Below, piece after piece: positions 181 through 59,900 of a stretch of 64,000 bases of DNA. The translations under genes and the position numbers were made by a program. Source of the stretch: Phoronis australis. Lineage: Eukaryota; Animalia; Phoronida. Numbering within the stretch: position 1 is the stretch's first letter; each line of letters opens with the position of its first letter. Where the stretch lies: NCBI GenBank assembly GCA_002633005.1, contig NMRA01000043.1:338018-402017 (forward strand). Direction: 5' to 3'. The notes under the pieces are model-generated. The model made no database searches and was not told where the DNA came from. It saw nothing but the letters and a program-made list of their open reading frames with translations.

Positions 181-2798
181 ATTAATAAAATTACGAAAAG
201 CTGTATTTAAGTGGAAAATATGTCTAGGATAACCAACCAACCTTATTTTAGCTTAAAATGACATGGAAAAAGGTTGCCTTCGCCTTTAACATAGAGTGGT
301 GTGAGGAGAAGTGTTTACTTACTGAATATGCCCTCTGTTGAGAAGATTAGAATGCAATCGGTAAGACACGTTGGTTTACCTATTTTCCCATCCCGGGATG
401 ATCCCGGGAATACTTTCAAAGTTACAAACAGTTGGAATTTATGCAGAATTTCATATTTTTTGCCTCTAAGATTTCAAGGTTGTTCCATTCTTGTGCCTCA
501 CAAACTATACCCTTGAACACAGCATTGATTTTTAAGTAATTAAAATTATTTCATGATCGAATGTTTTGCCTATTCTGGCTAGGGGTATGTGAAAAACACA
601 GAGTTCATGAATACATTGTCCTCCGTCTTATTTTAGTGTTACGTAGGAATGGATTCCACGCACAAATAAATATATATTGGGAAGCAACTGAAGATTAATA
701 AAAAGCGGTTTGGCAAGCAAGCGCATGTTGGTCACTCATGGCAGTCCCGGTGTACAGTAAAGAGACAGCTGTGACCCTCGTGTCCCAGCTACCCCTCTCA
801 TACTCATGTAGACTGTGAATTTCATCTAGGAACCCATATTGGTTCCTAGATTTCATGCATGATTTATTGCAATCTTGACCAATATTCAACGGCTCGCCAG
901 ACAAGAGTGGTTTCAGGCTTGGTGGCACTGAACACTTAAGCTGCGGCCGCGGCCAATTTGCACTGCCAAAATATTAAATTTTGGAAGAAGCCAAGTTTAG
1001 GGGCATTTTGTAGGTAGGCCGCATGGTGGGCTCAGTGGATGTGGTTTGCTTGTATTTGTGAACATGTTGAGAATGAAAAAAGAGCACTAGCTCGGCTGTA
1101 GCTGCACTCTTCTTCAAGATGGCGGCCACCGGTTGCAATTGGCCTATCGCCAGGATTTTGATTTGCGGCTTAACTGACCATTTGGAACTCATCATATTCT
1201 TGACACACCTTCATTTCCAAGCGGCCATTTTACCCGACAAGCAACAGGTTGTTGGGTAAAACTTATTGTTTGTTAGACGACGCAAGGGGGCAGAGCTTGC
1301 GATAGGTCAACTGTGCATTGCTGGGTAGCGACTGAGAAATTGGCAGCGATTTCAGGTAGCCCCTCAAACATTAAGCCAAAATTCATTTCAAAAAAAAAAC
1401 GTGTTGCCGTTCTATGACAGTACTTTTGGACCACATTTTCGGAATTGGTAGGAAATTTGCTTTCAGAATCTAATGTTGGCTTTAGTCATACATCAGCAGC
1501 TAAGTGGTGGTTTTGACGTGAAAGGTGCCGATTTTGTGCTTTTTTTCTTAGCCGCCTACCTTAATTGCTTTTCAGTAGAAGTGAAAGGGCCAAAACTCCG
1601 AGGCACAATATAGTTACTGTTCTCATCTGTAGGTCTTTTTATGTGAAATAATTGAAAACATGTCATTCTTTGCATCCTGTTTTCGACAGAATGCAGAAAA
1701 GGTAACAAATCAAGTAACGTGTGTTTTCAAAACCTAGCCAGAACTGCTCTGTGCCTCCTAACGCCTATGTCACTTACTAGTCCAAGCTTCGTTACCTTTG
1801 ACATACCCATGAGTTCTTGTAATTGGTTAATGCGAGCATGTGTCATGACGATAAGCTCCACCTAGCGGATCACGAATGTTATAAATTTCGGGCAGCGACT
1901 GACTTTCAGAGGCCTGCTATGGATGGCGGAGGTCACTTATTGAAAGGGAAAACACAATAATGTGTGGTTAAATTATTCTACACTATGATACATTTTAGGA
2001 AAAATATGACTAGGATACAAAAAACTTACTCTCCAACAAAAAAATCAAAATGTTGTCATTGCATGTAAGGCTTTGCTATATCAGTTCGGGCTTTAAGGTA
2101 CATTATCGTTTTATGGCTGAAAAATATGCATCTTTGGGATTATTGTTGGGTGGACTTTTTGCAGTTGTCAGCTTCAACCAGAGTGATGAAACAACAACAT
2201 TCGTAGTATATAGTGCTTTTATTACTAATCGCCAATTCTCGTCGATGTGTGCAAGTCATTCACTGAAATCAAGGCCGGTAACTTTACAAGTTAAATGCGA
2301 TTAAAATATTTATCATTTATGGAATATAATTTAATTCGTCAGTTAAGTATTTGGCTACGAATCTGAGGGCTACCGGCTCGGATCCGCGATGGGGTTGATA
2401 TCAGAAAATCACTTTGCTCACCAATAATGTTACTTTAACGTTAGTTCACAAAATCAAGTACAATAATACGTAATCGCTTTCCTATAGTGCAATATATTCA
2501 GCCAAAGGTAAAAAACGCATGGTTGCTTAAAGTTGAAATTCTACAAAACCGAAAACGGAGCGTCTTCGAACTAAACCAGAATATTTTTGGTATGAGTAGA
2601 CAGTCTCATTTCAAAATAAATTTATTGCATTTTTACCGAATTGTAACACGTCACTATTTTGAAGCTTAAAATTAACATGAAACTGGTCCCAAAGTTATTC
2701 TTATAACTACTACTTTGTTAAATTAATATTGTGCAAAGTAAAATCATAATATAAAGTACTTGTACAAGAAAACGCCCTTCACTATTCATTATCAGTAT

Positions 2799-3600
2799 CT
2801 ACTCTAGTGTCTTTCCAACCTTAGGCCTGATGTGCTCCTCTCTTCTCATTGCGCATAGCCTGGGAACGAGTACAAACATAAGAAACACGCTAGCCATAGT
2901 TGTGTTTCCAACACAAAACGCTGGCATTACGTAAGTTCCTCCAATCATGGCCACGACGTAAATCCAGGCAATCATGGCGCCTGCCGAGAACAGCCACGTG
3001 ACGAATAAAAGCTTTGCCTCGTGGTAAAAAGCGCGTGAGCAGCAGCATCGGAAAATCGTCACCAGCAGCACGAGGAAAAGGAAAAAGATGTACCACAACG
3101 ATACGAGAGTTTGCTCATTAACTTCACAATGGGAAATAAGCGAGAATTTTGGAGGCTCGTAACGACCATGGATTGGCAATATTTTCGTTGTCGGAGCTGG
3201 CATGTCAAGATACAGACACTGTATGAGAATGGCTATTTCGGGAAGAACAAGGAAAAGCAGAAAGGCGAGTTGTTTTCCAGTGGTTACATGCTCCTTGGAC
3301 GTGTCGTGAAGATGAACGGCTTTTGCTCTGAGAATCAACACAGACAGGGCTAACGCATTCAGAAATTCAATAGCGGCTTTATTAACACTACAGGTAATAA
3401 ACGACGGTGGGGAGAGTAGAGAAAAGTTGAGAACAAACATTAAAAACACGGAAAACAAGAGAAGAAGAAGAAGTCCAGGAAACGTCGACTTGTATTGGCT
3501 GCAGCAAAACAGAACCAGAATCAACAAAACTACCGCGACACCGACTGAAGACAAGACAATGATAACTAGGCCAAAAGTTGTGCGTTCCTGAAAGAGAGCT
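2799..3600 (-). other. Class C 7TM domain (7tm_3) with very short C-tail
   Basis: Seven hydrophobic segments in ORF 2799..3743; TM3 Cys (ITCSV), ECL2 Cys (SHCE), HEAK and VPRL motifs. Confidence 0.9.
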
Positions 3601-6600
3601 CCAAAACGAGGCTTTGAACCTTTGCCGTTTTGAGAACTTTGGAGGCAATGATCACAGTTCGACTCGCACCACGACTGCACGCGCGAACCTTCTTTTGTGT
3701 AAAACTGCGGCTGACGCGAAAGCTTGAGGGCACCGTTCCACACGCCAACCTAAAAATAAACATAAGATAGTGATTCGTTGTACGCGGGGCATAGTGAAAC
3801 AAATCGTTTTTCATCAATTTCCTGCTATAGAACTCTTAAAGCTAGAACAGTTTAGTCAGCACTTATTTCCAACAACGCAGGATGTTTTTTTTTTAATTAG
3901 ATTGTTTGATTGGAGAAAGTTTTTGTTTAATTTTGTCATTTTGTTGATGGGCCACAAAATGGCCAGCGAAGGTAATGAACGACAGGAATCTTTTTGGTGC
4001 ATAAACTTAGAAAATTGACCATGAAAACACAAAAACACAAAGGCTATCAATTTTGAAATATTTAAGTGATTTCTTCTGGTCGATGGAACTTGCTGCGTGG
4101 ACAAGCAAAAAAGTATATCTAGAGATTCTCGATTATATATTCCCCTCAGAAATTCAGCTGAGATCAACAACGTGGTAACTTTAGACAGCCACTGCACTTC
4201 ATACCTGCACAGCTGATATTTTCTTATTGACTTCGTAGTATCTCATAATATTCAAGTGCGGTCGAAGATGCCCGTTAGAGTCAAACATGTACGTGTTTAT
4301 GCCACTGTTTCTAGTCACGAGTGATTCGTTCACAATCAGCTGGAACATTTCTTTCGTAACAGAAGGATTGAAAGATTCTGGACAAGACAAAAACTTATAA
4401 TTTCCACACAGACGTTGCAAAATCCTTTCCGCATTCGATACGTAGAGGGATATTCCATCTATAGTTGCCTGCGTGTATGGTGTGACGTATTGACGAACGT
4501 CAGATTCGGTAAGCTGCTCTCGCCCGGTACAGTGCTTATTGTACATCCGGCCACTTCCCAGGTTGCATTTGAAATGTTCTTGCCAGAATTGCGACATCCA
4601 CGGGTCAGATCGAATATCTTTGAGTGTGGTCTGCCGTACGTAATGGATGAAACCTCCGTCCAGTTTCGGATTGTGGGCAGAAAGCGTAATTGAATTCTTG
4701 ACGACTTTTGGATATTGCGATTCTACTCCAGGCTGCCAAGCAGTACTACTGAGAAGGTACAGGTCTGAAGCATGATTTTTCACTGAGGCGAGAAACTCTC
4801 TCGCGGCATCGTCTGACAGGAAAAGTACAACGACTGGCGTATCCTTTCGTTTAACCAAATTTTTAGCAAGCCCTGATGCAAACGTTTCGTTGCCTAGTTT
4901 AAACACGTACTCAGAAGCCGAACAATATCCAGCTTTTTCCAGCATTCGTTTGAAGGCAGCCATCTTGTCTTCATTATCGGGCGAACAAACTAGAGACACG
5001 TGAGACCACCTGACCTCCTTCAGGAAGTCAATCATAGCTTGCAGCGTGTATAGTTGGTCTGCGGACAAGCGAACGAGAGTTTCCTGAGCTGTTCTGTTTT
5101 TGGACATGGTTGAAGAAGCGACTGGTGTCATCTTTAAAAGAAATTCACCTTAAAATAAGATTCACATCGTAGTCAGTGACGTTGCCGTTAGCATCAATAA
5201 TGAGTTCGTCTGGACAAAACAGAGAGCCAATGTCGTAAATCTTATTGCACAATACTGATGCAATATTTCCATTTTGGTAGAAGTTAAGCATTACCGATAT
5301 TTATTACATTTTGTACACAATGTGGTGGAAAACAAAATTTATCGAAGAGATGTGCCTCTGACTGAAAAAGTAAGCAGACGTGGTCTCCCTCGTTTCCAAT
5401 CGACTACATGAATAGACCTAGTTCGGGTGTAGGCATGGTGCCTCTAGACAAGTGTAGAGACAGATTTCCTTGCCTGCATTTAGTTCCCCCTTTGACTTTC
5501 AGCGTAGTTGTAACGTGAACAGAAAAACGCAAAAGCAAATAAGCTTAGCAGAAAACCCAGCGTTCGAGCCGCGGTCGGGACATAGATCTTTTCTGACTAT
5601 ACGTCACGTGATGCGACCAACGTACGGCGTGTAAGAAGATTAATAATTCTTGCTTATACGATATCAAAACGATAATTTATAACAACGCAATTAGGTAAAA
5701 GCACTTGCATTACCTGAAGATGAAAATTATTTGGGTACATTTGCAAAGCTCTGGTAACTTTGTCGGAATATCCTCCAAAAAGTAGCATCTCATACATCCA
5801 TATTGGCACAGCGTTTTCTTCAATAAATGTTTGATAAGTGACCGAAACAGTTGATAGTAATTTTTTTGCACGATTGGGATCGTCACAGTCGTCGAATATC
5901 AAATAACCTGTAACAGACAAGTTGCCTTATATCAAAACAGTGTCCTTCTGATAAAGAAAATATAGGTTATGAAATCAAACCTAATCTGTCACTTGGCAAA
6001 TGGCTGCTTTACTTAGTCGCGAACATGCTGCAGTTTACGAAAGACTACAATTTAAAAGATCATTTATTTTTCTCCCTAAATACCAACACAGCAATATAAT
6101 AAAGCTGCATGATAACAGCGTGCAGAAGGGAAGGGAGACGGGGCTACAGGGTGAGCCCCGGCACCACACACAGGGGGCATCCAATCACTATGGCTAAAAT
6201 TTGAAATTGAGACTGTTTCACTCATGCATTTGAGTAGAGAGGGGCATCCAATAAAAATAGGCCAAACCTCTGCACGGTATTGCGTGACTTTGAACCTTTT
6301 TGCTATTGAAATCTTCAGATCCTATTTGCACATAGCTCTTCTGCACTTACCTAAACCACTGCCGTTGAAGGAGTTCCGCATTTTCGCTGCAGCAAATTCC
6401 ATGGCCTTCATATTGATGAAGCCCTCCGCACTAAACTGCCCGCAGATCCGCCCATCGCCGTCTGACTTATGAATGGGTACCATGCCAAGAAATGAAAAAG
6501 GTTTGGATAAATGTTTATATTTGATGTCCATGTTAAATTCAGACAAGCACGCGCACTTGTCGCATTTTTCCTTCATGTCGGATATGGCTTTTCCACCCAC

Positions 6601-9600
6601 TAGGACAACCGAAGTTGAGTTCAGTTGCAGGATGCCCTTTGCCCAGGAACCAACCTTCGAATATTTATAAGAAGAGTTGTCTTCTCGTTTGTAGTTGAAG
6701 ATTTCGTAATGCGGTGCCGAGTTTCCAAACATATCGAAGCTGACGTTACGTCCAGTCTTACTGACGAAAGCAACCTTTTTAATATAGTTGTTCACTAGAC
6801 TTAAGTCTTTTACTGGCGGACACTTGCTGGGGTTGCTTGGACAATGGTCAGATATGAGATTGTGTAGAGCATGAGCAAAGGCAAGCACGGCATCGATGGT
6901 GGCGCCGGCTTGTGGCTGGATATCCTGATCATTAAAAGTCTGATTGTTGTCACAAGGAACACCGTACGTCATTTTTTCGGGGAAGTCACACTTAAATTTG
7001 TATTGCCAGTAATCTTTCAGCCAAATGTTTTGATTGTCGACATCTGGGCGAATGGATTTGAAGTGGTTCAAAAATGAAGCATTTTCCTTTGGCAAACTCT
7101 TGCGCGAAGTCAGAACAAGAGCACCAGCTGCAATATCATCGAGATCAACTGTCACGTATTTGTCTGTTCCCCAATGACTTGTTCCGATCCATACAATATC
7201 GCTGGTGTTGTTGCCGTAGGCGTTTTTTACAGCCCTGAGCATACCACGCGCGTCTTCACTCCGCCCAAGGAAAACTACATTTTTTGGTATATATTTGCTT
7301 TTAAACATTTCAGCGTATGTTTGAAAAGTACCCCTGGTCCGGTAATATGGTTTTAGGTCAATGACAGCCTGTACACAAACGCCACTGTCTTTAGACATTT
7401 TCAATATTTCTTTGGCACCACTCTCGCCAGATTGTCCTTCAGAGTACATAACAGTTAAATTTTTCAAACCTAGGTGTTTTACAAGATCCATTAAAGCCCT
7501 TATTTCATTTGTGTCGTCACTTATTGTCCTCACGAAGTGGGGATACTTTTCTTTGTCACTAAGAGATGGACTGGCATCAGACATGCCGATAACGGAAGTT
7601 TTCGTCCACCCAGTGCAGTGAAGAAGATCTTCCGTTGATACACCCCAGGTAGGCCCTATATAGACAGACGGAAGCACTGGGTCACCATCGCCGTCAGTAC
7701 ATCTGTCTTTATGTAAGATTTGGTTCACTAGGCGAACTGAACGGCTGTTATTGTGACATGTATTCAGAATTGTAGCGCTAAGCTTTGTGTTGGGGAGAAT
7801 ATCCGGATTGTTGTTCACTGCGTCGACAGTGAACAGCATGGCTTCTACACTTTGGAAGTCAGCATCCGTGAAGCTATTCAAATCACATTCCTTGTCACTT
7901 CCGCCAGGCCGGTTGACGCCAAATAGCCCCGCGATTACCACACCACTGTCACCAACCAGCATTCTGCAAAAGATTAATTTATAATTTAATGGTCCTTAAA
8001 CCAAAAAACTGGTACTGCCAATCAGGCAAATTGATGATTTGCAATCCTTGCCTTTAGAGGCACAAAGACAACGCTAAGCGTTGATGTACGCCCTCAGAGT
8101 ACCACCATTTCTAGGGTTGCTTACCAGTTTCATGTAACGTTCTAGGAGACAACAATCCGGCCCCACAACAGCACCGCCAACCGTATGCCTAGGGGTGTTT
8201 ATTAGTATCACGAAGATAACTAGGCCTACTTGGTGGCGCACAATATGTCGAAACCTCCCGAAAATGGAAAGGCTTCGTTGACTAGGTAACGACAAGGTGC
8301 GACCATATAATAATTATGTACCTCTCAGCCTTTGATGGAGGGTTCAAGCAGGGACACTTGGAGCACATAGATAATGCATTCGGTATTGGATTACTTCCGT
8401 TATAGAACTTAATGTTTCCCGTCATGTTGAGATGCCCGTATGAGAAGTGACCAATCTGGAAGAGGATGATAATATCACGTATGCTTTTGATGTACATTAT
8501 GGATTAATGAGCGACGATCTTCGACAACGGCAATATGGTGCAAATGGTGGTGACGAAAATGGTGGCGCTGACATTATGAACTGATAACAGTACATTGTAT
8601 TTTAATCTACATTTTACTACCATTAAAGAATCTTGAAAAGCAGATACCTACCTCGCGGCTGGTAACCTTTGGACCATCTAGCTGGGTATTGAAAATGTCA
8701 GCTTCGGGATTTGCCATGTCTCCATTTTCGTCGAAATATATTTTTGTTCCTGCTAGTGACTCAAAACTTTGCTTCCGAATGTACCGAGTCATTTCTTTGG
8801 CAGACATCTCCGACATGTTTTTACATAGACCCGGCTTACCACTACAGTGGTTACCGTGAGCTTCCTTGAGTGCGTTCGCAAACGCAAAGACTGCTGACAC
8901 AACACTAGACGTGTATGGATACTCTTCGTACGACTCCTCCCGTTTTGATTGGTCGACAGCAGCTTGTGACGAGTTGTACAAATGTTTCCAGTACTCAGAA
9001 AACCAAGGATTGTTAGTGTATTTGGCGGGGGTAAGGCTGAGGTAATATGTCTTAAACTCTTTCATCTCCTTGATTGTGGAGTACATGCTGACCACTCCCG
9101 GCAAGTCGACATTGTTGACCTCAGGGAGGAGGAATATAAACATGGTGCTGCGGTCGAGATTTAGCGATTTGTAGACGCTGAAGAAATAATCCATCGTTGA
9201 AGTGTAGAGTGCTACTACGACGCCATGGGCACCTAAAATGAAGTTACGTCAAATTAAATTTACAGTTTGGGGCTCTCGAAAGCACGTCTGCAAATGTGTG
9301 GAATGGAGAGCAGCTGAGTTATACTGAGACACAAATGTTACTCACTCTAACTATAATATACATAATGAATAGAAATATGTTACAGATACATGTATAATAT
9401 TGGATATATGCTCTGGCCAATTCCAGTGAAGAATCTTTCAGTCGTGTTTTTATCTTGTGCATGTAATTTGTCGTTCAATGTAGTTAGTACTAAGCATGCA
9501 CTCACCAGTTTCCATGACTTTTGCGAAGAACGCTTCTATTGCGGCTGGCTCAATCGTAGCATCATTTTTAATTTTCAACAAATTCGTTATACACACACTC

Positions 9601-12600
9601 TCCTGTGAGGCTTGCCGAGTGAATTCGGATTGGATACTTTCAGTTACGGGGTCGTTGCCTGCGATCATGGATACGTGGGACCATCCCAGTATCGATGTAA
9701 GGATTTTCATCCAAATCTGAAACAAATCGATAAGGTGACAATGCGAGTGGAGGCCTTTGGAAACCATGATGAGAAGTCAATAATGGTATTTACCGTGTGT
9801 GCGTTACTATACACAAGATGTCAACGCTTGCTCAGTTTCCAAAGAACATCTGACGCTATTTGTGACTGTCCAGGGACTAATTTTGCAATTGAAATTATAG
9901 TTCCTAGGGAACAATATGATTCAGGGTGGGGTGAAAGAGGGGCTGAGGTTGCGCCACGGTTCAAGCAAGTACAATTGTCGATTTCACTTTTCTCAACCTC
10001 ATTTTTTCAAGGTTTACTGATCACGGCAGATTTTTGCTCCTCCTCTGGCTGTCGCTAAGTCTCTAGCCTAGAGACCAATAATTCTTCGGCAGGCCGCCAA
10101 AACGGCTGACCCTGCCCGGTCGTCCTGATCCCAATTTTTGTCCACATTGACGGATTCGAACGATTTTACGACTCACAACAGTCTAAACCTACAAAATCAG
10201 GTTTACGACAACATTCAAATCACGGTTCATGGATATGAAAAACGTCAAACTCAGGTTGACTTCACATACTACAAAAATGACGTTTTACGGGTCGTTGAAA
10301 GGACTTTGCGCCTCTCGCCGTTAACGCATAAATTTCGTATTCTGACATTTTAATCGCAGAACATATGTTACGGACACAGATTCTGAAACATTTAGTTTGG
10401 TGATGGAGATTACCTTCACAGATGCACCAGCATTAGCAACAGTCCTGCTGAAGTATGGATGTTCTGTCTTGTCACTTAGTTTGGTGGCCTGGGAAAGTCC
10501 ACTTATCTGTACCATGGAGTTCAGTGGAGTGATTATCTCGGATATTTTCATTGAGTTTGCGCTGTATTTCTCACCGATAATACCTGCAATAGGCCTATAT
10601 AGATCCCGAAAGTCTCTTAGAAATTCAAGAAGAACAAAACTCCAATTGAAATACTGATGCATCGTTCATGATTTCTAGAAGGTATTAGACATTGTATGGA
10701 AAGTGCAGTCATGTGTTGAACGCGTGAATGAAGGGTACACGTGTTTGATTTGGTATGATAGTGTTTTTTTTGACTCAGAAGGCTAAAAAGATTTTTCATG
10801 AAAAGTAATTTGACTTTTTTATTCTCGAAAGCAATACCAACAAGTCTTCCACGTTGCGCTCTTGGGAGTTGTTCTCGTCACTGTATAACATTACTAAGTG
10901 ACTTCTCAAGGGACACAGAATGCCGAAGCGAGATAGTAGGTTTTGAAATAAGACTTTTTAACGAAACGGGTGCAGCGTTTTAGAAAGGACGGCCGGCATT
11001 TGATTGCATTTGATTGCCAATGTTTCAAACTAGTGTGGGAACACCGATTAAAGTCTCTAGGAATAATTGTTAGACAATGTTCGAGTATAAAAAATCATGT
11101 ATGCATACAAAAATACGTTTAATTTGAATTTCAACCGTCCTACTGGCCTAACTTGGGCCCTGAAAGAATAATTATTATCGCTGCATGTGGCTTCAAAACA
11201 TATAATTACTCGCCAGTTATGCTATCACGTTATTCTCCAGACTGAGATGTTCAGGTCGTGCGCATTTCCACAGTTCAACAACTCTTATGGTCTTTGTTAC
11301 CTGGATACATTACAACAGAGGACGCATTACAACTAGCTTTTCTCTGTGCTTCCGCCACTGAAATGTAGTCCATCAGGCTATTCTGGGCACGATTGATGTC
11401 ACCGCATGTGTCCCAGGCTATACCTCCTGTATTCAGAGAAAATGGGAAACGCATTAGCTTATTGTCTTTGCACTTTCGCTGGCATTAAAGGGAGAAACTT
11501 TCAGAGGCGGATCTACGAGGGGTTCAACCCCCCCTCGGGACAGGTTCAAAAATAAAAATTAAAAAATGTCGGCAGGAAAACAAAATCAGATACTAAAAAC
11601 AAAAAATATTACACGGGAGGGGGAACCCCCCCCCTTTACTGAAAACGTAGATCTGCCACTGACTTTTATTTAGTCAAGATCATAATGTGAATTTAATATG
11701 CATGCATTTGAAAACAACATTTTACCAAATACTCAGCGAGTATTTCTGTCACAGTGGAGTTACTTAATATACCAAAGATAACCCTCAGTTCATATTGACG
11801 CTAACGTCATTTTAGAACAAAATACTATTGAGCGCATCACTTGAAAGAAGTCGACAGTTCTTTGAACAATAATTACTGTATTTTCTACTATATTCTCGGC
11901 AAGAAAAGTAATTTTACATGAAGCAACATTAGCGCGGAATGCAACCCAGATGATCCGCAACAGCATCCGAGCGATCTGCCGCTGAGCCGCCAAATCTCAC
12001 CCGTTAAATACATGTAGCGGAGTCGGGGAGAAAAACCATTTTTCGAAATCGGCTCCAATACGGAATAGAACCCGAAGCTCTCACATCGCAGCCAAACGTA
12101 CTGTTGGCTGAGCTAAATCGCGTTCACAAAACGGCAAAGTATTTTAAGCGTGTCTATCTTGTAAAGACAGTGGCTTTAATTTCAGCGAATGTCTGGCAGG
12201 CGGCGATTTGGAATAAAACCTCAAGAACACAACGGATTTGACCGTTTTATAGCTCAGGTCAAAGCGAATAGCAGTCTATCTCATGCATCATTAATCACAG
12301 CAATGCGTCTTTTCGACCGTAAAAAGTTAAAGTCTCTTTACTGAAGCGTTTGACCCGATTGGGGCTCTGGTTTCAGCAAATGCCTGGCAGATCACAGTGG
12401 ATTTTGTTGCTCTGGTGAAAGCCAATCACTTCAAGAAGCCTATCCATCGAACAATAATTATCGAAATGCGTTTTTCGACAGTAAAATGATAATGTCGTTT
12501 TAACATGGTTTCTGTCAGCTTCTGTGGTTTGTGCTGTAGTTAGTAACAGACTTGTAAGACGTGTCAGTCCAACTGAATAACAATTCCTTTATTTTGGTAT

Positions 12601-14839
12601 TTTCGTATTTTTGTTACAGTTTTTCAGTACAGCGCCACCTAGAATAAAGGACTCTTTTCATGATTTACGGTGTGCCGGTAGATATAATGCGACGGACACC
12701 AAAAGCCAGGCTCGTAAATAATAAAAATGTCATGAAGTGCCGCAGAATTAGTCGAATTCGTCCGAAAATGAGAAGGCATTGTAGAAGTGTATCTGACAAA
12801 TTTCACGAAATTCCGTCAAGTGAGTAACTGAACTCCGAAGGTACAGAGGAAGCGTATACTAGAATTACTTCACAACGGTAGTCGTAGTCATCTGTCGTCA
12901 GCTCCACTGGAACACATTTGTCTACTTTCATCGAGATCCTCTAAGGGTTTTGGAGATGTAGCAGCCTAGGCAGAGATAACGATATTATGCACCTACAAAA
13001 ATGTGCCGCACAACAAACCATCCTTTCGTGAAGGTTTTCCCCAACATGATAATATCTTTCTGTAGGTGTTTGCAAAATGCTTACCTACTGAATAAAAACG
13101 TTTGATCGGTTTGTGTTCGTTTTCCACGAAACAAATCTTAATAAAATGTTAATTGCTGCTCCACAGTTCTGGTGGAGAAAGAAGACCCTTTTGAATGGCT
13201 CTAACCTAAAGGTGAGCTCTCTTGCAGCAAATTTAATCGGACAGGCACTCTTTTTTTATTCAATATAATAGGTGCAGTACAGATCACACAATTACAGGTG
13301 CTTTTTGTTCTAGTCAAGGAACAGTTAAGGTGTTAACTTACAGTGCTAATATGCACAAAGGTAATTTGACAATGGAGGAAAGATAAACACAGTAGATGCT
13401 AGGATTCATTAGACTACGCAAACAAGGTCAACACCTCGCCAGCGCTCTATAAATTCACAGTACTTCATTTTGTTTATATATATAAACCGTTCAGTAGAAA
13501 TGTAGAAAGCAACTTCCTTTTTAAACATTGCAAGGCACGGATGTTTGCACTTCAATCTTTGTTTATAAATGTGATATTTTCCGAGGGAAAGAATCATACT
13601 TTGTAAAATTGCCTCACCTGAACACCAAACAGAACTGATTTGACAGACAGCTCTAAACTAATTCCAACAGCATCTTCGAGCCAGTTATTTACATTATTCC
13701 AAAACTGCTGAGTTACATTACAAGACCAGTACACATGGACAATAGATTCAATTTCACTTAAGCAAAAAGTGCACAATGGGCTATCAGTTACGCCAATCTT
13801 GTATAAAAATTCATTACAGCCTATGATTCTGTAAATCAGCCTAAACTGGAACCATCTCAGAGAAGCATCTTCTGTGAATGAATGGATGTAAGAAAAAACA
13901 TTGTACCACCATTCTGCAGTATCAGGGAGATTTATTTTTTTACTCCACTTCATTTGACACTTTGTTTTTCCTCAATTCTGAGAGACAATAACGTGGTAAA
14001 TTTTATCTACTCCTTTGACATCTCCCAAATAACTTCAATGTATCGTGGACGACGCGGTAAAATTACTTGATGCTTTCCCTCTCTGAGATGACTCCAGCTA
14101 GCATATAATGAGCTTCGTAGACCGTAAAATAAAGTTACTTGAGGGGTAAAGTCAAATTTCTGTATAAACTCCTCATAATTAAGGAAACAACCATCAGAAT
14201 TAAGTAAGTCGTGTACACGAGTTCTGCCTTTTTGATACCACCGTTAATGGAAAACAGGCTTGTTATCTATCAGTATATTCGAACTAAACCATAGAGGCTG
14301 ATAAATACCATCGTTTTCAAAAGAATCTGAATTCATGGACACATTGAAAGACCTCTTTCCAAAATACATTAGAGGTCATCTTTGAAAAATAGAAATCCCC
14401 GAACATTAAGTAATTCTCTGAAACTCTTGATAACAGACCATTTGCTAAAACTGCCCATGGACTTGTAGTACGTACTTTGACAAAGTCAGGCACTCTTTGA
14501 GTCTATACGAGGGAAAGAAAGCTACTTACCAAACTTTACGCCTGGTATGAAATTATCTGCATTCAATTTTTTTAATGCGAAAACAAACGCTTCAAGGTTT
14601 TGAAACGACGCTGCATCTATTGGGGTTGAGCAGACCTCTGTTCCGCTACCAGGGCCAGGCTTCAAACGAAGCGGGAAGAAACCTCCTAACATAATGTCTC
14701 CGTTCATCTTCAACATCTTTTGACTTTCGCACGAATTGCCATTCACAAAGGTGGTTGTTAGGGCGCATATCATCGAAGCAAGCAACACCGAAAGTTGATT
14801 TGACATCCAACGATTTCCATGTCTGGAATCCGCTGCCAT
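2799..14839 (-). CDS. Class C GPCR (mGluR/CaSR-like) with three tandem Venus flytrap (ANF_receptor) domains and a 7TM; ~1738 aa, 10 exons
   Basis: Hand-spliced exons, all GT-AG and phase-compatible: 14839-14530, 11426-11301, 10583-10414, 9716-9506, 9232-8652, 8455-8322, 7963-6351, 5907-5714, 5131-4205, 3749-2799; total 5217 nt = 1738 aa + stop. Hydrophobic signal peptide. VFT motifs GDIMLGGFFP / WDTC / LSDKTEHPYFSRTV / NPWFSEYW, repeated as VIAGLFGV / LNTC / LSDKEKYPHFVRT / NIWLKDYWQYKFKC and FLGMVPIH / FDDC / DPWMSQFWQEHFKC. 7TM has class C motifs FYHEAK (cf. FNEAK) and VPRL (cf. PKxY). The exact C-terminus is uncertain (possible donor AAG|GTTGGA near 2820). Confidence 0.9.
3700..6510 (-). 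other. VFT domain 3 (end of exon 7 to start of exon 10)
   Basis: FLGMVPIH...C...AMEFAA...G|YLIFDDC...FGGYS...AMIDFLKEVRWSHVS...VVVLF...DPWMSQFWQEHFKC...TIDGI...FDSNGH...VGVW. Confidence 0.85.
6600..7963 (-). other. VFT domain 2 (entirely within exon 7)
   Basis: VIAGLFGVN...[33 protein letters not shown]...IGP...LSDKEKYPHFVRT...GESG...WIGTSHWG...IDAVLAFAHALH...VSFDMFGN...KVGSW. Confidence 0.92.
11502..11661. mobile_element. ~160-bp MITE in GPCR intron 1
   Basis: TIR CAGAGGCGGATCTACG / CGTAGATCTGCCACTG; 5-bp direct repeat ACTTT on both flanks. Confidence 0.7.
13254..14486 (-). mobile_element. 5'-truncated non-LTR retrotransposon (L1/Tx1-like ORF2 3' end) in GPCR intron 1
   Basis: ORFs 13594..13953 and 13409..13597 (frameshifted) encode an RT C-terminal zinc knuckle: FQFRLIYRII...PLCTFC...ESIVHVYWSC. 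AATAAA plus A-tail at 13251-13260 on the minus strand. 12-bp TSD CAGGCACTCTTT at 13242-13253 and 14487-14498. Confidence 0.85.
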
Positions 14840-15280
14840 TTTTGTTTGTCAGTGATGTGAGTTTGCTAAGTTGTGTGCTCAAAATAACCTTTCGCTTTAT
14901 ATTGTGAGGATGAATGTACCTTTTGTTCGTGTAAGCGCTCTGTCAAGTTTCGTACACTAGGTGAACTAGAGGTTGATGACCCGTAAACAACATACCTTCA
15001 CTTGATGGTTGTGTAATTCATGAGAAAAATAGGTGATGTAGAGTCCAAGGCCTATAGTTGCTGGCTCATACATTTAAACTGAACGACTGAGGCCGCGTTC
15101 CCGTCCGAGAAGCGAACTTAGATTTAGACTAGTTACGGCTATGAAATTCAGTGGTCTGAACTTATGCGCCATACTACAATGAAAAGTGATTTCAGGATTT
15201 CCAGGCTAACATTTCGCTATTTTTGAAACCATGCTCGGCCCATGAAATGTCACGCCGGCAGACGTCACATGAATCCTAAT

Positions 15281-17769: not shown

Positions 17770-20700
17770 GGCCCGGTCTCCAATCTTCGTGCTCAGACTC
17801 ATTCTCATACTCGAGATTTCATACTCAAAATCGTGCTCACTGGAGTCGTACTCAAAAAAGGGCGTATCTAATGTCGCATTTCGAGTAGACTCCAAACGCC
17901 AAACGTACTCAAATCTGAGATTCATACTCGAGTTGCTATGGAACTCTTTATGATGTGAAATGTAAAACCACACAAAGTCGCGCTGATTCATCATTCTCTA
18001 TTGGCATAGACCACCCCAGCAACTACATTATCGTCTGCTGTCGCTACAACTACAAGAGTAGGCCTATAACGTGGAATTCTGAGTGTTCTGTAACTGTTAT
18101 TCATTTTTTCAGTTTCAATACAATATTCTTAAACCATTTCTTTGATACATTTGACAATTATTAAGCTTTACTTCTTGAGTTTCTCATCTCTCGAAAATAT
18201 CTTAAGAAATTTGTAACAGCTTATCACATCAAAGAACCCCTTTTCTCTCTTGCTAATTTAGTATTGACATAGAACCCATTGCTGTGTAGGTGTACGCTGA
18301 TGTCAAAGCTTTGATACTGTATCTTTGTATTTTACCGGGATGTATCAAGTTAAATGACATTTGACGCGTGAATTAAAAAACAACACACGTGCAGGAATTC
18401 AGAGTTCAACAGTGAACGGGACGAGACGTCTACTTAGAAATCAGCAAACAAAATCTGGAATACCATTCGGGGATCAAGGAATTATAGATGACTAAACTAT
18501 GACATGAAATGTACCTGACAGGGAAGCGAACTTTATTTAACTTTCCTCACCTCCCCGTCTTTTGGAAACCCTACAAATCGTAGACACGCCTACTGAAATA
18601 AGTTATAAGGGCAGCACAAACTTCTCACACGACTTTTCCCACAACTGCTTTCGACATTTGTAATGACTCGCCGACAAGGGATTAGAATGCGCCTGTTGCC
18701 AGGAATCGTAGACTAAGGAGTTTATACATTGGCGGCGATGACATGCAGTGATACTGCGAGTTAATAAGGTGAAAAATAAGAAGATTTAAAATGAAAATTA
18801 TTATCTCTAAACTGAAATTGAAGCGCTGAAATATGGTAAGAGGACTTAATTTGCTGAGTCTGTTGGTGGCCTTTCGATATTTTGTTTTGTCGCTCGTATT
18901 TATTTTCGAGTACGATCAAGGAGTGTACTAGTACAGGAGAGTTCACTTCGCCATTTTACCATTCGCCACAATGGTTACCGTTCGAAACACTAGCGCCCCA
19001 AGCGGTGAATAATCAACACTTAGGAGCGCAGTCCGAACAATGTAAACACTGATGAATTCATACTTCAATGACATTCAACGTGCAATAAAACTACTGTGTG
19101 ACTAAAAATGGTTAGAATACATAAACTAACATCCACTTACAATAGAATGAGAAAGAAAATGTGTATTTTAATCAATATTAAAGTGTATTTGTTTTTATTC
19201 TCTTGAAGCTCCCTTCAAAATCCATCATGGTTTTGTTTCATGTTTGAGTGCTTAACACGGTAATTATCGTTCCTTATAACAGTTCATACCTCCATGGATT
19301 ACATAATTTGAATGATTTCTTCTGGGGGTTCAGAGGGGAATTGCCCCCAGGTGCCAGCTAAGGGGGTACCAGGCAAAAACCAGGTGGGCGCCAAATGGGT
19401 GTTGACCCCCTCGCAGGGGGGTTACATGGGAGGAGTGCTAAACAGGTAAAAACCAATGAGTATGTATGCCACATGGGTGTTGAGCCCCTCCCATCGCCAC
19501 ACATTTTGATTGCTCCCCTGACCATTGACAAACATGTTGCTCCCAGCTCACTGCTGGTTTCATCTCCACCCAACAATTTCGCATGTGTTCCCTATTCAAT
19601 GCACCAGGCTACTAGCAATGCAGACAATTGTTTTGTGCAGTGGGTGTTACACAAGTGAGAAGAAGAAAGCAAGACAATTCATCACTACCACAAAATTACA
19701 ATTTTAGGACATTCCAATACTTCTTAGACATGCCAGTATAGGGCTCAATTCCACTCTCCCACTCACCAACAGTCACTTGCTAATCTGTAGAATAGCTCAC
19801 AACTTACCAAATGAAGTAACATTGAGTATATCATCACTCATAACTATTCAGAGTTCAAAATATCATGACAAAAAATTAAGAGGTACTGAACAGCAATCAA
19901 AATATTCACTACCCACATAGCTTTATACAAAATTGAATTAAAAAGACTGATAAAACCAAAATTTTATTTTATATACCCACTGTTCCTATTAGTAAATATT
20001 TCAGGTAAGTTAAAACCAGAACACAAGATCATATCTGACACCTAGCCACAACTGGGGCTTAAATTAATCACAATCTCCAAAAACGTACAAAATAGGTAAC
20101 ACATACACCAACCAAATACAACAAGAAAATCTGACCAACCTTGTCACTCTCTATTAATTCACTAGTAAACAACAGCACTTTTCGCCAAAGAAATGTGTTA
20201 TAAATAAAGCTGAAAACTAACTTACTCTGAGAAATTTTATCATCGAGAAGCAAAATGATACGGATAGCTTGGGTTTAACAAAATTTCAGCCCACCACTCA
20301 GATTCTGAATGATCCATCAGTTTCATTTTGGCACTCTCCAAATCACAGGCTAACCATTCATAAAATTTTTCAATCTGATCAACCTTAGTAAAATACGAAA
20401 ACTAGATTTTGACTAATTGTCCTTTCTACACGTGATGTTCCAGTACTTGCTTTGTGAGACGATAATCAGAAATGCAAAAAAGCATATTCCAGAGCTGTAA
20501 TATAATTTCCGGAGAACTTTTTGACCCTGACATCTTCATTTTTGATGGATTCGGGACATCAAATATTGTTCGGGCGCTGCAGTCAGTACCAGCTTGTTCT
20601 TCATTCATGAACATGGACTCCTCGAAGTGATGAGAGCATAACTTGCAGTTCTTGGACAAATAGGATGCATATCTATTCATAACGTCAGCTCCCAGCGCTC

Positions 20701-23362
20701 GTACCTGAACAGAAATCAATGACTGAGAGACTCAGGAACAAACCTCATACTCACTAGGTTCACAGAAGACTGGTACACTACACTACATAATTGCTGTCGT
20801 ACAGTGATTGTGATAGAGACAAAAGTGTTTTGGTGTCAACTGAAAAAAACTCGGATTCAAGTGTTGATCCACGGATATTTTAACAGGGCCGCGCTTCCGC
20901 ATCATTGACACATAGAATTAATTTTTTAATGCCGCACTACATTAAAATTATGTTGAATTTTTCACCTTTTCACCGAGACCCACAGATTCTCTAACTTGAC
21001 TCATGACAGACTTGTGGCCCTGTGGCTGTGATTGTGCCATGGCCATGTCACCAGTCATATTACCCATGGGCATGGGCATGGGCATGGGTATGTTTTCCTA
21101 AAATTATCCCTGCGATCGTACGGGTGACATTTGGATTTGGAATTCATGGACTGCAAGTATCCAAAAAGCTGACGATCAAATTGTACGTTCCTTCCGCCGG
21201 CAGCCCGGCTGTACAGTATGCCTAGCCTACACTGTAGACAACAGTGGCAACGGGACTGCGACCGACTTGTCTAACAACAGTGAACAGAACACACAAAATG
21301 AAAGGCAGTGTATCATATTATTGAATAACAGATAATGCTTACCTTTCTGGATCCTTAGGAAACCTAAAAATGACACGTCTGGGGTTTTCGATGATGAATT
21401 CATGCAATTTATCGCACTGCAAAATGCGTCCTTCCCCATTGTTTTGGCGCTTCCTGGTTGACAGTTGCTTAGTCACCACTTGGCGGCGCTAGTAGTAGCG
21501 GTAACAGCGAACTCACAAGTGAACTCTCCTATACTACTAAACTCCTTGGTACGATTTCAAGCACACTGCCAGACCAAACTTGAAATTTGGAGCGTATACT
21601 CGGAATTTTACTCAAAATCTTACTCGAAATATAGATGAGATACGCTTCAGTTCGAGTATACTCGAAAATTGAGTACATGCTCGAAATTTCGAGAACAGAT
21701 TTTCGAGTATGACAATGAAAACCTACTCAATTTTCGAGTATACTCGAAATGAAGTGTATTTCATTTATATTTCCAGTACGATTTTGAGTAAAATTTCGAG
21801 TATATGCTCCAAATTTCAAGTTTGGTCTGGCAATGCTTGAAATCGTGCTCTAAAATAAATACGAGCGAGAGAACAAAATATCGAAAGGCCACCGAGAGAC
21901 ACAGCAAATCTAAAAAAATTAAGTCCTCTTACCATATTTCAGCGCCTCAATTTCAGTTCAGAGATAAGAGTTTTCATTTTATATCTTCCTATTCTTCACC
22001 TTTTAATAACCCGCCGTATCACTGCATGTCATCTCCGCCAATTTATAAATTCCTTCTCACTCTACGATTCCTGGTAACAGGCGCATTCTAATCCCTTGTC
22101 GGCGAGTCATTACAAGTGTCGAAAACAGTTGTGGGAAAGTCGTGTGAGAAGTTTGTGCTGCCCTTATTTCAGAAAGTATGCCTACGGTTTGTAGGTTTCC
22201 AAAAAACGAGGAGGCGAGGAAAGTTAAAAAAAGTTTGCTTCCCTGTCAGGTATTTCACATCAAAGTGTAATCATCTATAATTCCTGAATCCCCGAATGGC
22301 ATACCAAATTTTGTTTGCCGATTTCTAAGTAGACGTCTCGTCCTGTTCACTGATGAACTCTGAATGCCTGTAGGGGCCTACATGTAGTGTTTTTAACTCC
22401 CGCGCCAAATGTCGGTTAACTTGATACATAATGGTAAAATGCAAAGATAAAGTATCAGAGTTTTGACATCAGCGTAAGCCTAAACAGCAATGCCGGGTTC
22501 TATGTCAAGACTAAATTAGCAAGAGAACAGGGGTTGACCAAGAACCAAACAACTGCGGCCCAAAAATGTCGGCTGGAGTTTCGGGCTGACGTGGACAACC
22601 GGCTTACTAGAGAAGAACGCCACCGCTGGCAATTAAGGTACAAACTTTTGAAATTCGACCTCTTGTCAAAGTAGATGTGCAATTCGAACTCTCCCTTAAA
22701 AACGTTGGTTGCAGGCCTGTGATACGGTACCTGACCCCCGGCCCGGGGTCACCGGCCCACCACTGCTTCAATGCGAAAGAAAATTTCAATAGTTAGTGTG
22801 ACCGTGGCAATTTTAGGAGTAAATGTGTCAAGTATAGGGTAGAATGAACTCATTTTGCCCCCCTGGCTAAATCAGACACTGAGATTGTGGCTGCCCCGTT
22901 CCGGCAGTGACTTTCTTTGATGTGATGAGCTGTTACAAATTTCTTAGACATTATCGGGAAATGAGGAACTGAAGAAGTAAAGCTAAATAATTGGCAAATG
23001 TATCAAGAAATGTTATAAGAATATTGAAAAAATCAATAACAGATAAAGAACATTCATTGCATTATTTCTAAAACTTTGCATTTCCACGTTATAGGCCTAT
23101 TCTTGTAGTTGTAGCGACAGCAGACGACAGTTGTCAGGGTTTCAGCGCGACTTTGCGTGGTTTTGCATTTCACATCATAAAGAGTTCCATAGCAACTCGA
23201 GTACGATTCTCATATTCGAGTACCCGGTACGTTTGGAGTCTACTCGAAATGCGACATAAGATACGTTTTTTTGAGCACGACTCCAGTGAGCACGATTTTG
23301 AGTATGAAATCTCGAGTATGCGTATGAGTCTGAGTACGGAGATTGGAGACCGGACCCGGGCC
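17770..23362. mobile_element. Harbinger-like non-autonomous foldback element: two ~1.3-kb inverted arms, the left arm interrupted by a nested transposon
   Basis: Ends GGCCCGGTCTCCAATC...GATTGGAGACCGG(ACCCGG)GCC with CTG on both flanks. 17770-18916 plus 21549-~21677 is the reverse complement of ~21724-23362. Rich in TACTCGA/TCGAGTA subrepeats. Confidence 0.8.
18917..21548 (-). mobile_element. P-element-superfamily deletion derivative with a decayed THAP domain
   Basis: 32-bp imperfect TIR CAAGGAGT(G/T)TA(C/G)TAGTA(C/T)AGGAGAGTTCACTT. 7-bp TSD GTACGAT (18910-18916, 21549-21555), single-copy at the empty site near 24942. THAP remnants MGKDAFCSAINC...[frameshift]RFPKDPER (21439-~21342) and LCSHHFEESMF...TIFDVPNP (~20704-20545). 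Confidence 0.85.
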
Positions 23363-56900: not shown

Positions 56901-59900
56901 TGAAAATCATGAAAAATGCTGGATGTTCTTTAACCTTTGCTTAAAACCTTCTACCTCAATATTCAAGTTGGTTTTGAGCTCATGGCTGGCATTCTGATAC
57001 ATTGTTATGAATTGAAAGGGCCTTGAAGGCCATGCTAATCCGCCACGCCAATAGAGTAACTTAAGTAGTCCAGTCTAAAGCGACAACAAACTATCACTTC
57101 TTATGAAGCCTAGAAATCATTTTTGTCTGAATAGAGAGGTAAATTTTATTCCGATAAGGGGCTTTGTTGTGTTTTTGACAGCAGTCACAGGTATATAGTA
57201 TCATTAAAGAAATAATTCCTGCAGATACAACAACAAAGAAACTGACCGTTTACAAATAAGATTTACATACAATCATGCAGTGAAACATTAAAACTCTGCT
57301 TACTCTTTAGCCGCATAGGACGGGTGGGCTTGGCGTTCTTCTTTGCAGCCTTCATGGTAGCTTCGGAGGCCATCGTGTGTGGGGATGATGGGGGCTCTTT
57401 AAGGTCATAATGCTTGCCATTCTCTCGGTGAGGAGTGTAAGGCAGGGACAGTGATCTGTAATCAATCATGTACAACTGTTTTCCAATAGTAAAGAAAGAC
57501 TATTAGTAAATAAGAGACTTTCGGTGATATGTTTTAGATCAAATTTCCACTTGTGTCATCACACTAACATGGTACAGATATCAGCTGAGTTTTGTGCGTT
57601 CAAAATGTAACAACACCTTGATATGTTAGCCCTTCCCACACCTAATTTTTTTCCTTTCATCGAATATATCTGAAGGTAAATTCCAAAACCAAAGCATCAT
57701 TATTGGAATATAAAGAACACTAACACAAAATTAATACAATTTTATTAGACTGTGGAAAGAAGTGTTTGAACAGATTTAACCTTGGTAAATTTTCAACATG
57801 GCAGCTTCTTTGCATTACTTGGCATTAAAACATATTATTGGAACTCAGACACATAGTAATGACTCACATACTTGAATGTGCTTCATGATACATTTCATGA
57901 AACAAAACGAATCACTGACTGTAGACTAAACACATTCATTAGCTAACAACTGCACGGTGTTGTTAATCTGTGATGTTACCACATGCATTCAATTCATAAA
58001 TCTGCAACAAAGGTACATGCATTCTCATAATGAGCCATGCAGCAGCAGCTCTCAAGCTCACCAGTGATCAGCATGGATTGCATGAGAACTCATGAGACAC
58101 TTTCATAGGATTTGATTCTACACAGCAGTGTTGTCTAAATCACCACAGTTCACTGGTGTCTAAAGGCCATTTTTGAGGCTGCCAACTGCGTAAAGTCTGT
58201 TCTGCTGGCCTGACTGTAAGTGAATCTTTGACAACATAAGCAACACTTTAATTTGTATTTCGTCTCAAACACTCACGTCTCCAAGATGTTCGCCTTATCA
58301 GCCTTGCTTCTCTTGCTCTTAACCTTTTCAGAGAAGCCATTCTCCTGAAGGTGTGGCTCGCCCGAGGGATGGGGATCATCAGCAGACTTCTTCGCCTTGG
58401 TCTTAGTCTTCTGTTTCTCTGCCTTGGGCACGAGTGGTTCTGGAGTAGAGCAGCCGGCGCTGGAGTTCTGCAAGGGGAGATAAGCATGCCACAAACAGGT
58501 ACAAAACGTGCCATACATCTAAGGAACTGAATAGCTGTGCACACCTACCATTCCCATTGGTAGTCAATTAAATGGGCACTTCCTCTAGACTTAAAAGCTA
58601 AACATGGAAATGAAGAAACAGAATGGATTAAGCAACATGAACATCAATAGAGGGATAATCTGCAATTCATGCACAGCGGCTCACGTTAGTTGGACAACAC
58701 TGTCAAAACTAATATCATTTCTACAAATTTTTACTTGCCAATGCCCTGTACGATTGGTGGGTGGGGGAGAGTGAAAATCATTTTCTGACATAGCATAGGA
58801 AAATTTGACACCCGTTTTGTGTGGGTGAGCAACTTTCGCTATATAACTTGCACTTTAGGTGGTGACTGTGGAAGAAATGTTCCTTTAAAGCAGCTTGAGC
58901 CAAGCCATCTCAAAAGAAGCTGAATTCAATGGGTTCAAGGCATTAGTAAACAATTACACTTCTACACCACACACACACTACAATCATTAATTAGCACAAA
59001 CCTTGTCATCATTGTCAAGACTAGAGGTCTCTGTGGTCGTCGAGGAGTTATCGTCCCTATCCAGCTCATTCATTTCCTTACGCTGTTTCTTCTCCAGCTC
59101 TCGTCGTTCTTTCTCTTCTCGGCGAATCATAGCTTTAGTCTTGTGCTTCATCTTCTTCTTACCTACAAAGTCAACCTTCCAATGTGAGTTCAATTTTAAA
59201 TTTCAATTTTAACCACATTAGACTACAAGTCATTGTAAACTACTGCACACTAAAAAAAAACAATTCCTAGAATTAATGGAACATTATTGATTTTATGACC
59301 AAAAAACATGCTTTTGAGGTTATTGTTAGACTTTTTTAAGAAATGAGTGTTTTTTGTGATTTGATTACAAATCTCCAAGTATCACCATTGTCTGACAGAC
59401 ATTTACTGAAATCATTATTCACTTCAGTCGTATTGAAAACCATCATATCCAATAAAGTAAATAAAATGTACCGTCTTTCTTTTTTGACTCTACATCAAGC
59501 AGATTATTAGTGACAGTAGTAACGTTGGCAACGACGATGTCCGGCTTTACATGATCTTTGATCAGCTTGCTGTTTAACTTGTTCTCGTTGTTGACTTTCT
59601 CCAAGACTTCAGCGGACTTCCTCTTTTCAGTATTTTCCTTGTTCTTCTTGTCTTCAAAATTACTGTTAATACTCTGTAGCTCAGCCGAGTTTCGTTTCGC
59701 GAGTTTTTGACGCGACCGCTGCTTCAACTCACCTCGGTTTTCATTGTTGAGTATACTAGCCTTTTCTGTTTGACATTTTGACTGTTTTAATTCTTTTTCT
59801 CGAGAACTCTGTCGATCATACGATGGGCGTATCGTCTCGACCTTTAGGATGGTCTTGTTATTGCCAACAGGTGGTGATCCGTTCTCCTTCTTCTCTTTTG

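Follow-up and report, generated by a model that had tools for sequence, protein, structure and literature searches.

A three-cysteine clip following each Venus flytrap domain of a class C receptor gene in Phoronis australis

Class C receptors couple their extracellular Venus flytrap (VFT) domain to the membrane through a rigid cysteine-rich domain (CRD) with nine cysteines or through a stalk of the GABA-B type. A gene in a 64,000-nucleotide stretch of DNA from the phoronid Phoronis australis (contig NMRA01000043.1, positions 338,018 to 402,017 of the forward strand; this whole stretch is the window, to which all coordinates refer) raises the question of what serves this purpose in a protein with three tandem VFTs, after each of which come three cysteines only. 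The explanation that we favour, at a probability of about 0.7, is that the receptor consists of an ancient module repeated three times, a flytrap of the metabotropic glutamate receptor (mGluR) type and a three-cysteine clip, and that the clip would be stapled to lobe 2 of its flytrap by a disulfide from its third cysteine. The evidence that carries this reading is the paired loss, in relatives, of the lobe-2 cysteine and one cysteine of the linker.

Three flytraps and no cysteine-rich domain

In the gene model built in this analysis, the gene occupies 2799..14839 of the minus strand and encodes, in 10 exons, a G-protein-coupled receptor (GPCR) of class C with 1,738 residues and a signal-like N-terminus. 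All introns are GT-AG, and the single open frame is intact. The features, including the seven-transmembrane (7TM) domain, are the following.

14839-14530, 11426-11301, 10583-10414, 9716-9506, 9232-8652, 8455-8322, 7963-6351, 5907-5714, 5131-4205, 3749-2799, minus strand: exons 1 to 10
8444..14719, minus strand: VFT1, residues 41-470, exons 1-6 (our own VFT profile; Pfam ANF_receptor on the exon frames)
9591..9593, minus strand: lobe-2 cysteine of VFT1, C244, in SVCIT (by alignment)
8345..8371, minus strand: mini-linker 1, SMCSKCPCL, with C497, C500 and C502; spliced straight to VFT2
6640..7962, minus strand: VFT2, residues 512-952, exon 7 (ANF_receptor, E 1e-46; mGlu4, E 5e-54; our own VFT profile)
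7375..7377, minus strand: lobe-2 cysteine of VFT2, C707, in GVCVQ (aligns to GGVCIAQS of mGlu4)
6544..6570, minus strand: mini-linker 2, EKCDKCACL, with C978, C981 and C983; within exon 7, leading without a break into VFT3
3735..6519, minus strand: VFT3, membrane-proximal, residues 993-1427, exons 7-10 (ANF_receptor, E 2e-13 on exon 9; mGlu8, E 7e-20; our own profile)
4922..4924, minus strand: lobe-2 cysteine of VFT3, C1183, in GYCSA (by alignment, including mGlu8)
3642..3674, minus strand: mini-linker 3, SWCESNCDHCL, with C1450, C1454 and C1457; shares exon 10 with the 7TM domain
2862..3581, minus strand: class C 7TM domain with a very short C-terminal tail (Pfam 7tm_3; hydropathy)

The Pfam 7tm_3 (PF00003) match, with an E value of 8e-16 and 58.8 bits against a cut-off of 33.5, and the extracellular VFT (ANF_receptor) in three copies identify the protein as a class C receptor. 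The three VFTs are 17-19% identical to one another, so that the duplications must be ancient and not local to this gene. A preliminary description of this DNA had placed the linker motifs after VFT1, VFT2 and VFT3, and they are confirmed at these positions on the minus strand. They are the only clusters of 3 cysteines within 8 residues in the 1,444-residue ectodomain; the chance of such a cluster is about 6e-4 per given site, and about 2e-6 for all three with 20 offsets allowed for each. Although a resemblance to the start of a CRD had been seen in all of them, the Cx3C spacing of that start is found in linker 3 (Cx3Cx2C overall) and not in linkers 1 and 2, which are Cx2CxC. Linker 3 is followed by a Gly/Ser/Lys-rich stalk of 24 residues. 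Each VFT does retain the lobe-2 cysteine, as described: C244, C707 and C1183 share one alignment column, which is occupied by cysteine in 34/34 aligned units, three CRD-bearing receptors included.

The protein has no CRD, each VFT being followed by three cysteines only. A scan for NCD3G (PF07562), which had been proposed in the expectation of no full match, gave no Pfam match at E up to 10 in 10/10 exon frames and none at E up to 1 in 7/7 relatives with mini-linkers, while 3/3 CRD controls matched with E values of 5e-15 to 2e-18. A six-frame scan of 2500-15200 for cysteine-rich frames yielded seven 40-residue stretches with at least five cysteines, all of them outside the coding frame and lacking the pattern of a CRD. 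A hidden CRD exon is excluded: exon 7 carries linker 2 and the beginning of VFT3 without a break, exon 10 does the same for linker 3 and the first transmembrane helix (TM1), and in RNA reads the exon of linker 1 is spliced directly to VFT2 (joint 7963/8322, seen in 5 reads of 2 runs). The remainder of the CRD is thus missing even before TM1, as had been claimed.

The gene is transcribed. Reads from three stranded runs of one study, under the same species label, cover the exons at low depth, and their first mates lie on the plus strand, consistent with a minus-strand transcript. Spliced reads back 4/9 introns (14529-11427; the 196-nt intron near 8651-8456, where the joint is offset by 2 nt; 8321-7964; and 5713-5132). 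Many reads are only 90-95% alike to the window, from which it follows that the sequenced individuals carry other alleles. It might be argued, given that the gene model is our own and that 5/9 introns have no listed RNA joint, that CRD exons were overlooked or that the linkers are remnants of a dying gene. Linkers 2 and 3 are, however, intra-exonic, linker 1 is spliced to VFT2, the frame is intact and the pattern recurs in more than 200 linkers; artefact or decay is refuted by these observations, and we regard its probability as negligible.

A family of receptors with the same linker

A first search returned two molluscan proteins with two VFTs and a single transmembrane pass, in which each VFT is followed by the same three-cysteine linker. 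A profile comprising these two proteins and exon 7 of the present gene was run against 1.84 billion representatives and yielded 9,633 hits, of which the best 150 were examined. Among these are 7TM receptors with two to five VFTs and many two-VFT single-pass proteins. Five VFTs are found in Tubulanus, Sinanodonta and Babylonia, four in Saccoglossus, Anneissia and Limulus, and three in Branchiostoma and Lytechinus; Lingula is represented by fragments. Two very long hits are fused CaSR-like gene models from Polypterus and were not used.

In total, 247 post-VFT linkers were scored in 129 proteins, a set that includes the three of this gene and contains close paralogues; VFT matches incomplete at the junction were left unscored. 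Removal of nine CRD-type linkers and of five rows that are short or fused vertebrate gene-model artefacts left 233 linkers, and dropping a further 11 rows with the lobe-2 position unaligned left 222 units. Exactly three clustered cysteines are present in 209/233 of the non-CRD linkers, and four in 3. The linker cysteines are conserved in relatives, and the proposal of the preliminary description that the duplicated unit is a VFT together with its mini-linker is borne out by the repetition of the pattern across the family. The commonest spacings are Cx5Cx2C, Cx3Cx2C and Cx4Cx2C; Cx2CxC is rare, occurring in 3 of the three-cysteine linkers, two of which are those of this gene.

The present gene has the organisation by which we define the family, namely two VFTs or more and, after each of them, Cx(2-11)Cx(0-4)C. 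Its 7TM domain groups with 19 other mini-linker 7TM domains, apart from six CRD receptors (Shimodaira-Hasegawa approximate likelihood ratio test 92.7; fast search of 26 rows, with a long branch). VFT2 groups with two Lingula proteins and one unnamed protein (support 0.985), and the best match of VFT3 is Lingula P0073. No close orthologue was found among the profile-search relatives, the best being about 28-32% identical per VFT; a quick tree of 34 units left those of this gene unplaced, and a word-indexed search with the 7TM exon gave no relative among 7,997 candidates. The same VFT and three-cysteine unit is present in multi-VFT receptors of Branchiostoma (XP_035691717), Saccoglossus (XP_002735016), Tubulanus (XP_074641006), Limulus (XP_013773119) and Lingula (XP_013398354), as well as in molluscan two-VFT single-pass proteins such as XP_060604760. 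These uncharacterised invertebrate entries carry the database names 'uncharacterized' or 'mGluR-like', and their VFTs number two to five, compared with three here. Judged by sequence, the gene belongs to this invertebrate family of multi-VFT mini-linker receptors, and the VFT with its three cysteines is an old invertebrate module, used in 7TM receptors with two to five VFTs and in single-pass proteins with two.

The single-pass proteins, which contribute 72 VFT-TM linkers with the same clip, form a large family without a 7TM domain (P0002, P0004, P0006-P0017 and many further hits), often present as several paralogues in one mollusc genome. In P0002 and P0004 the cytoplasmic tail is of low complexity; P0004, when used in an Atlas search, yielded an ANF-only cluster of 105 members, which may be its own. 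A role for these proteins as co-receptors or decoys for the multi-VFT GPCRs is possible.

Paired loss of linker and lobe-2 cysteines

At least three linker cysteines accompany the lobe-2 cysteine in 204/209 VFTs that have it, and are found in 0/13 of those that lack it (Fisher p 2e-17, with no correction for kinship). When the lobe-2 column is masked and a VFT-only tree is read by parsimony, the 13 loss units represent five independent losses. The association is specific, in that six other conserved VFT cysteines show none with the linker cysteines (p 0.45-1); because all six are kept in 12/13 loss units, the co-loss does not reflect general decay. The total of lobe-2 and clustered linker cysteines is even in 215/222 units. 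This coupling is as predicted by the disulfide staple that had been suggested between the linker and lobe 2, and we consider it highly probable that the clip is bonded to lobe 2 of its VFT. In a VFT-only crystal construct of mGlu8, the position of C1183 is occupied by Ser, which we read as the removal of a cysteine left unpaired without the CRD.

An arrangement without an intra-chain staple, in which a metal ion is held by the four cysteines or two subunits are joined through the odd one, could also be envisaged, CxxC being a common metal ligand motif and class C receptors being dimers, some of them disulfide-linked. The site, however, is extracellular. Moreover, loss of the lobe-2 cysteine removes one linker cysteine and leaves a cysteine pair in 11/13 units, as expected of disulfides but not of a site with four ligands, and we consider this arrangement very improbable.

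In alignments with sister units, the missing linker cysteine falls at the third position in each of the five loss groups. The clearest case is in the clade holding VFT2 of this gene, where Lingula P0099 has CSKPPCRT and P0073 has CLNPPCKC; the lost third cysteine is also clear in P0109 when compared with its clade, a nine-unit clade and P0160 are consistent with it, and P0152 is ambiguous by spacing. Reciprocally, unit 4 of P0065 has lost Cys1 and Cys2 and retains Cys3 and the lobe-2 cysteine. These cases point to Cys3 as the probable partner of lobe 2.

A staple with a different pairing would be obtained if the clip followed the order of the mGluR CRD, in which the VFT-bonding cysteine precedes the partner of the first cysteine; Cys2 would then be bonded to lobe 2 and Cys1 to Cys3. 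Structure models bear on this choice. The predicted model of VFT2 of this gene has the flytrap fold. The predicted model of P0004, in which the predicted local distance difference test (pLDDT) score of linker 2 is about 80 and the CxxC lies in a short helix, superposes on mGluR structures with Z scores of 37-40 and a root-mean-square deviation (rmsd) of about 3 Å. The superposition gives range ends only, and the aligned range usually ends at the CRD cysteine pair 527/528 of mGlu3 or its equivalents; the CxxC superposes on this pair and on 518/519 of mGlu2 and 530 of mGlu5, so that the modelled clip appears to occupy the place of the VFT-contacting cysteine pair of the CRD. Cys2 (C1011) coincides with the VFT-bonding position, which we take to be C527 in mGlu3, in 14/50 rows and Cys3 (C1014) in 4/50, and to this extent the model leans to Cys2 as the lobe-2 partner. 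The Cx4C bond of the mGluR order would also be easier to form in linkers 1 and 2 of this gene than a Cys1-Cys2 bond, which would be a tight CxxC, and the surviving Cx6C of P0152 has the Cys1-Cys3 spacing of its sisters. Nevertheless, the pair retained in P0099 and P0109 is spaced like Cys1 and Cys2 of their sisters, and its flanking motifs are intact (PPC and GxNC), P0065 unit 4 keeps Cys3 alone, and a superposition at 3 Å rmsd cannot separate adjacent cysteines, four rows giving the other register. We therefore judge the mGluR order unlikely, and retain Cys3 as the probable partner.

Some further observations weigh against the stapled clip as we describe it. The sample consists of the best 150 of 9,633 hits to a profile seeded with mini-linker proteins; it demonstrates that the pattern is widespread but gives no measure of its frequency in class C receptors as a whole. 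A single clade (support 0.79) accounts for nine of the 13 loss units, and the tree position of P0160 is weak. Five units have the lobe-2 cysteine together with fewer than three clustered linker cysteines, and the totals are odd in 7/222. In the models, pLDDT is under 50 for the linker of VFT2 of this gene and about 50 for linker 1 of P0004. A complex prediction of VFT2 of P0004 with its own linker as a separate chain, run without an alignment, scored 0.03, a value that speaks neither for nor against the staple.

The ectodomain contains extra cysteines at C599 (7701-7699), C627 (7617-7615), C136 (11331-11329), C37 (14731-14729) and C1162 (4987-4985). C599 aligns to a lobe-1 loop cysteine of mGlu4, which we take to be the inter-subunit cysteine, and this loop in VFT1 holds C136; no partner is obvious for C37, C627 and C1162. 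These five residues may form dimer or loop bonds. VFT1 (8844-9000) is without the cysteine pair found in VFT2 (C836, C848) and VFT3 (C1302, C1314) after the PW-F-x-x-F/Y-W motif.

Proposed working and relation to known receptors

In the stapled module, two disulfides would be likely to hold each clip, Cys1-Cys2 closing a short loop and Cys3 reaching the lobe-2 cysteine. The predicted bonds are C497-C500 and C502-C244, C978-C981 and C983-C707, and C1450-C1454 and C1457-C1183. The clip would anchor the exit of the chain from lobe 2 in the manner of a cut-down B2' sub-module of the CRD, without the two rod-like A1 modules. B2' has five cysteines, compared with three in the linkers of this gene. 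According to one study, B2' spans C511-C534 in mGlu5, the CRD has nine cysteines with one bonded to the VFT, and B2' keeps the VFT and CRD aligned mainly through this inter-domain disulfide (PMC11362167).

At VFT-VFT junctions the clip would place the next flytrap a few residues on. The distance from the last cysteine to the next VFT has a median of 8 residues in 106 junctions, which suggests that the ectodomain is a compact chain. Between the last cysteine and TM1 there are 24 residues here and 24-62 (median 30) in 16 7TM relatives, compared with 15-18 in six CRD receptors. This longer, variable stalk and the occurrence of the same clip in single-pass proteins leave a rigid rod to the 7TM domain unsupported and make a looser tether more likely; coupling may proceed through re-orientation of VFT3 in a dimer, over a GABA-B-like tether with no rigid CRD rod. 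The lobe-2 cysteine is kept in 91/91 membrane-proximal units compared with 118/131 VFT-VFT units, suggesting that the anchor matters most at the membrane.

The preliminary description had gone further and envisaged a rigid relay, by which closure of a distal VFT is passed through the staples from domain to domain to the 7TM domain. Such a relay would be compatible with the stapled module, and both the short junctions and the complete retention of the membrane-proximal anchor speak in its favour. However, the same clip is present in proteins with no 7TM domain, and five lineages have lost a staple between VFTs. The stalk before TM1 is long and differs in length between receptors, only one or two linker cysteines are found in four membrane-proximal units of 7TM receptors, and the two-VFT model has no firm inter-domain geometry (predicted template modelling score 0.66). 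We regard this part of the earlier proposal as doubtful.

The ligand is probably not glutamate. At the glutamate site of mGlu1 (R78 and K409, together with S165, T188, D208, Y236 and D318, which we assume to belong to it), 1/7 residues are identical in VFT1, 1/7 in VFT2 and 0/7 in VFT3, compared with 7/7 in three mGluR controls. The amino-acid backbone contacts are found in most family units, S165 in 150/222, T188 in 127/222, D208 in 152/222 and Y236 in 163/222. The ligand here may be something other than an amino acid, or some of the three VFTs may be structural.

The receptor shares with mGlu1-8, CaSR and T1R the mGluR-type VFT with its conserved cysteine pairs and lobe-2 cysteine, the class C 7TM domain, and a cysteine cluster that begins, as the CRD does, at the (P)xSxC position after the VFT. 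It differs from them in having three VFTs per chain and not one, three linker cysteines in place of the nine of NCD3G, no A1 modules, at most one of the seven glutamate-site residues per VFT, a longer stalk and a very short C-terminal tail. GABA-B receptors likewise signal as class C GPCRs without a CRD (PMC5719802), but they have one VFT per subunit, whereas the VFTs of this gene match mGluRs best and keep the lobe-2 cysteine with a clip. VFTs without a CRD also occur in Venus kinase receptors, which have a kinase domain, and in schistosome SmGBP, which ends after the VFT and has no effector domain; the accessible text of a review of Venus kinase receptors nowhere mentions a cysteine or disulfide. 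Bordetella BvgS, as far as its accessible description goes, has tandem VFTs, but is a bacterial histidine kinase. The metazoan types named in the accessible parts of a set of papers (PMC11362167, PMC5719802, PMC12716839, PMC3703292, PMC6307864 and PMC3206071) are ANF with NCD3G, ANF alone (GABA-B) and Cache with EGF.

The literature searched, a body that excluded subscription journals and supplements such as the receptor lists of PMC12716839, contained no account of animal multi-VFT GPCRs or of the three-cysteine linker, and relative to it the clip architecture is a new and conserved variant of class C receptor wiring. In addition to the CRD and the GABA-B stalk, the clip would represent a third way of coupling, one that is shared by molluscs, a nemertean, a brachiopod, a horseshoe crab, echinoderms, a hemichordate and amphioxus. 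As a natural minimal version of the VFT-anchoring part of the CRD, it would help in asking what activation requires of the CRD and how that domain originated. The natural paired losses point to the bonded cysteines, which makes the staple accessible to point mutation at a few sites. A large family of orphan receptors, invisible to Pfam, also gains a sequence signature in the clip. More speculatively, and we would not press the point, VFT and clip could be an undescribed stackable module defining a large invertebrate family of GPCRs with two to five flytraps and their single-pass partners, in which stapled flytraps relay conformational change, one receptor integrates several ligands and the minimal core that built the CRD may be preserved.

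Among the minor features of the window, intron 1 contains broken reading frames at 13594-14502 (minus strand), presumably a LINE reverse transcriptase end and a zinc-finger motif, where RNA reads fall on both strands with many differences. Short intronic repeats at 11519-11662, 6223-6257 and 5615-5660 draw in many RNA reads that match only in part and stem from other places in the genome. Outside the gene, a reading frame with a CSxHF motif at 20426-20731 (minus strand) is presumably a THAP domain fragment, and exons at 59443-61977 (minus strand) resemble what we take to be TMEM131.

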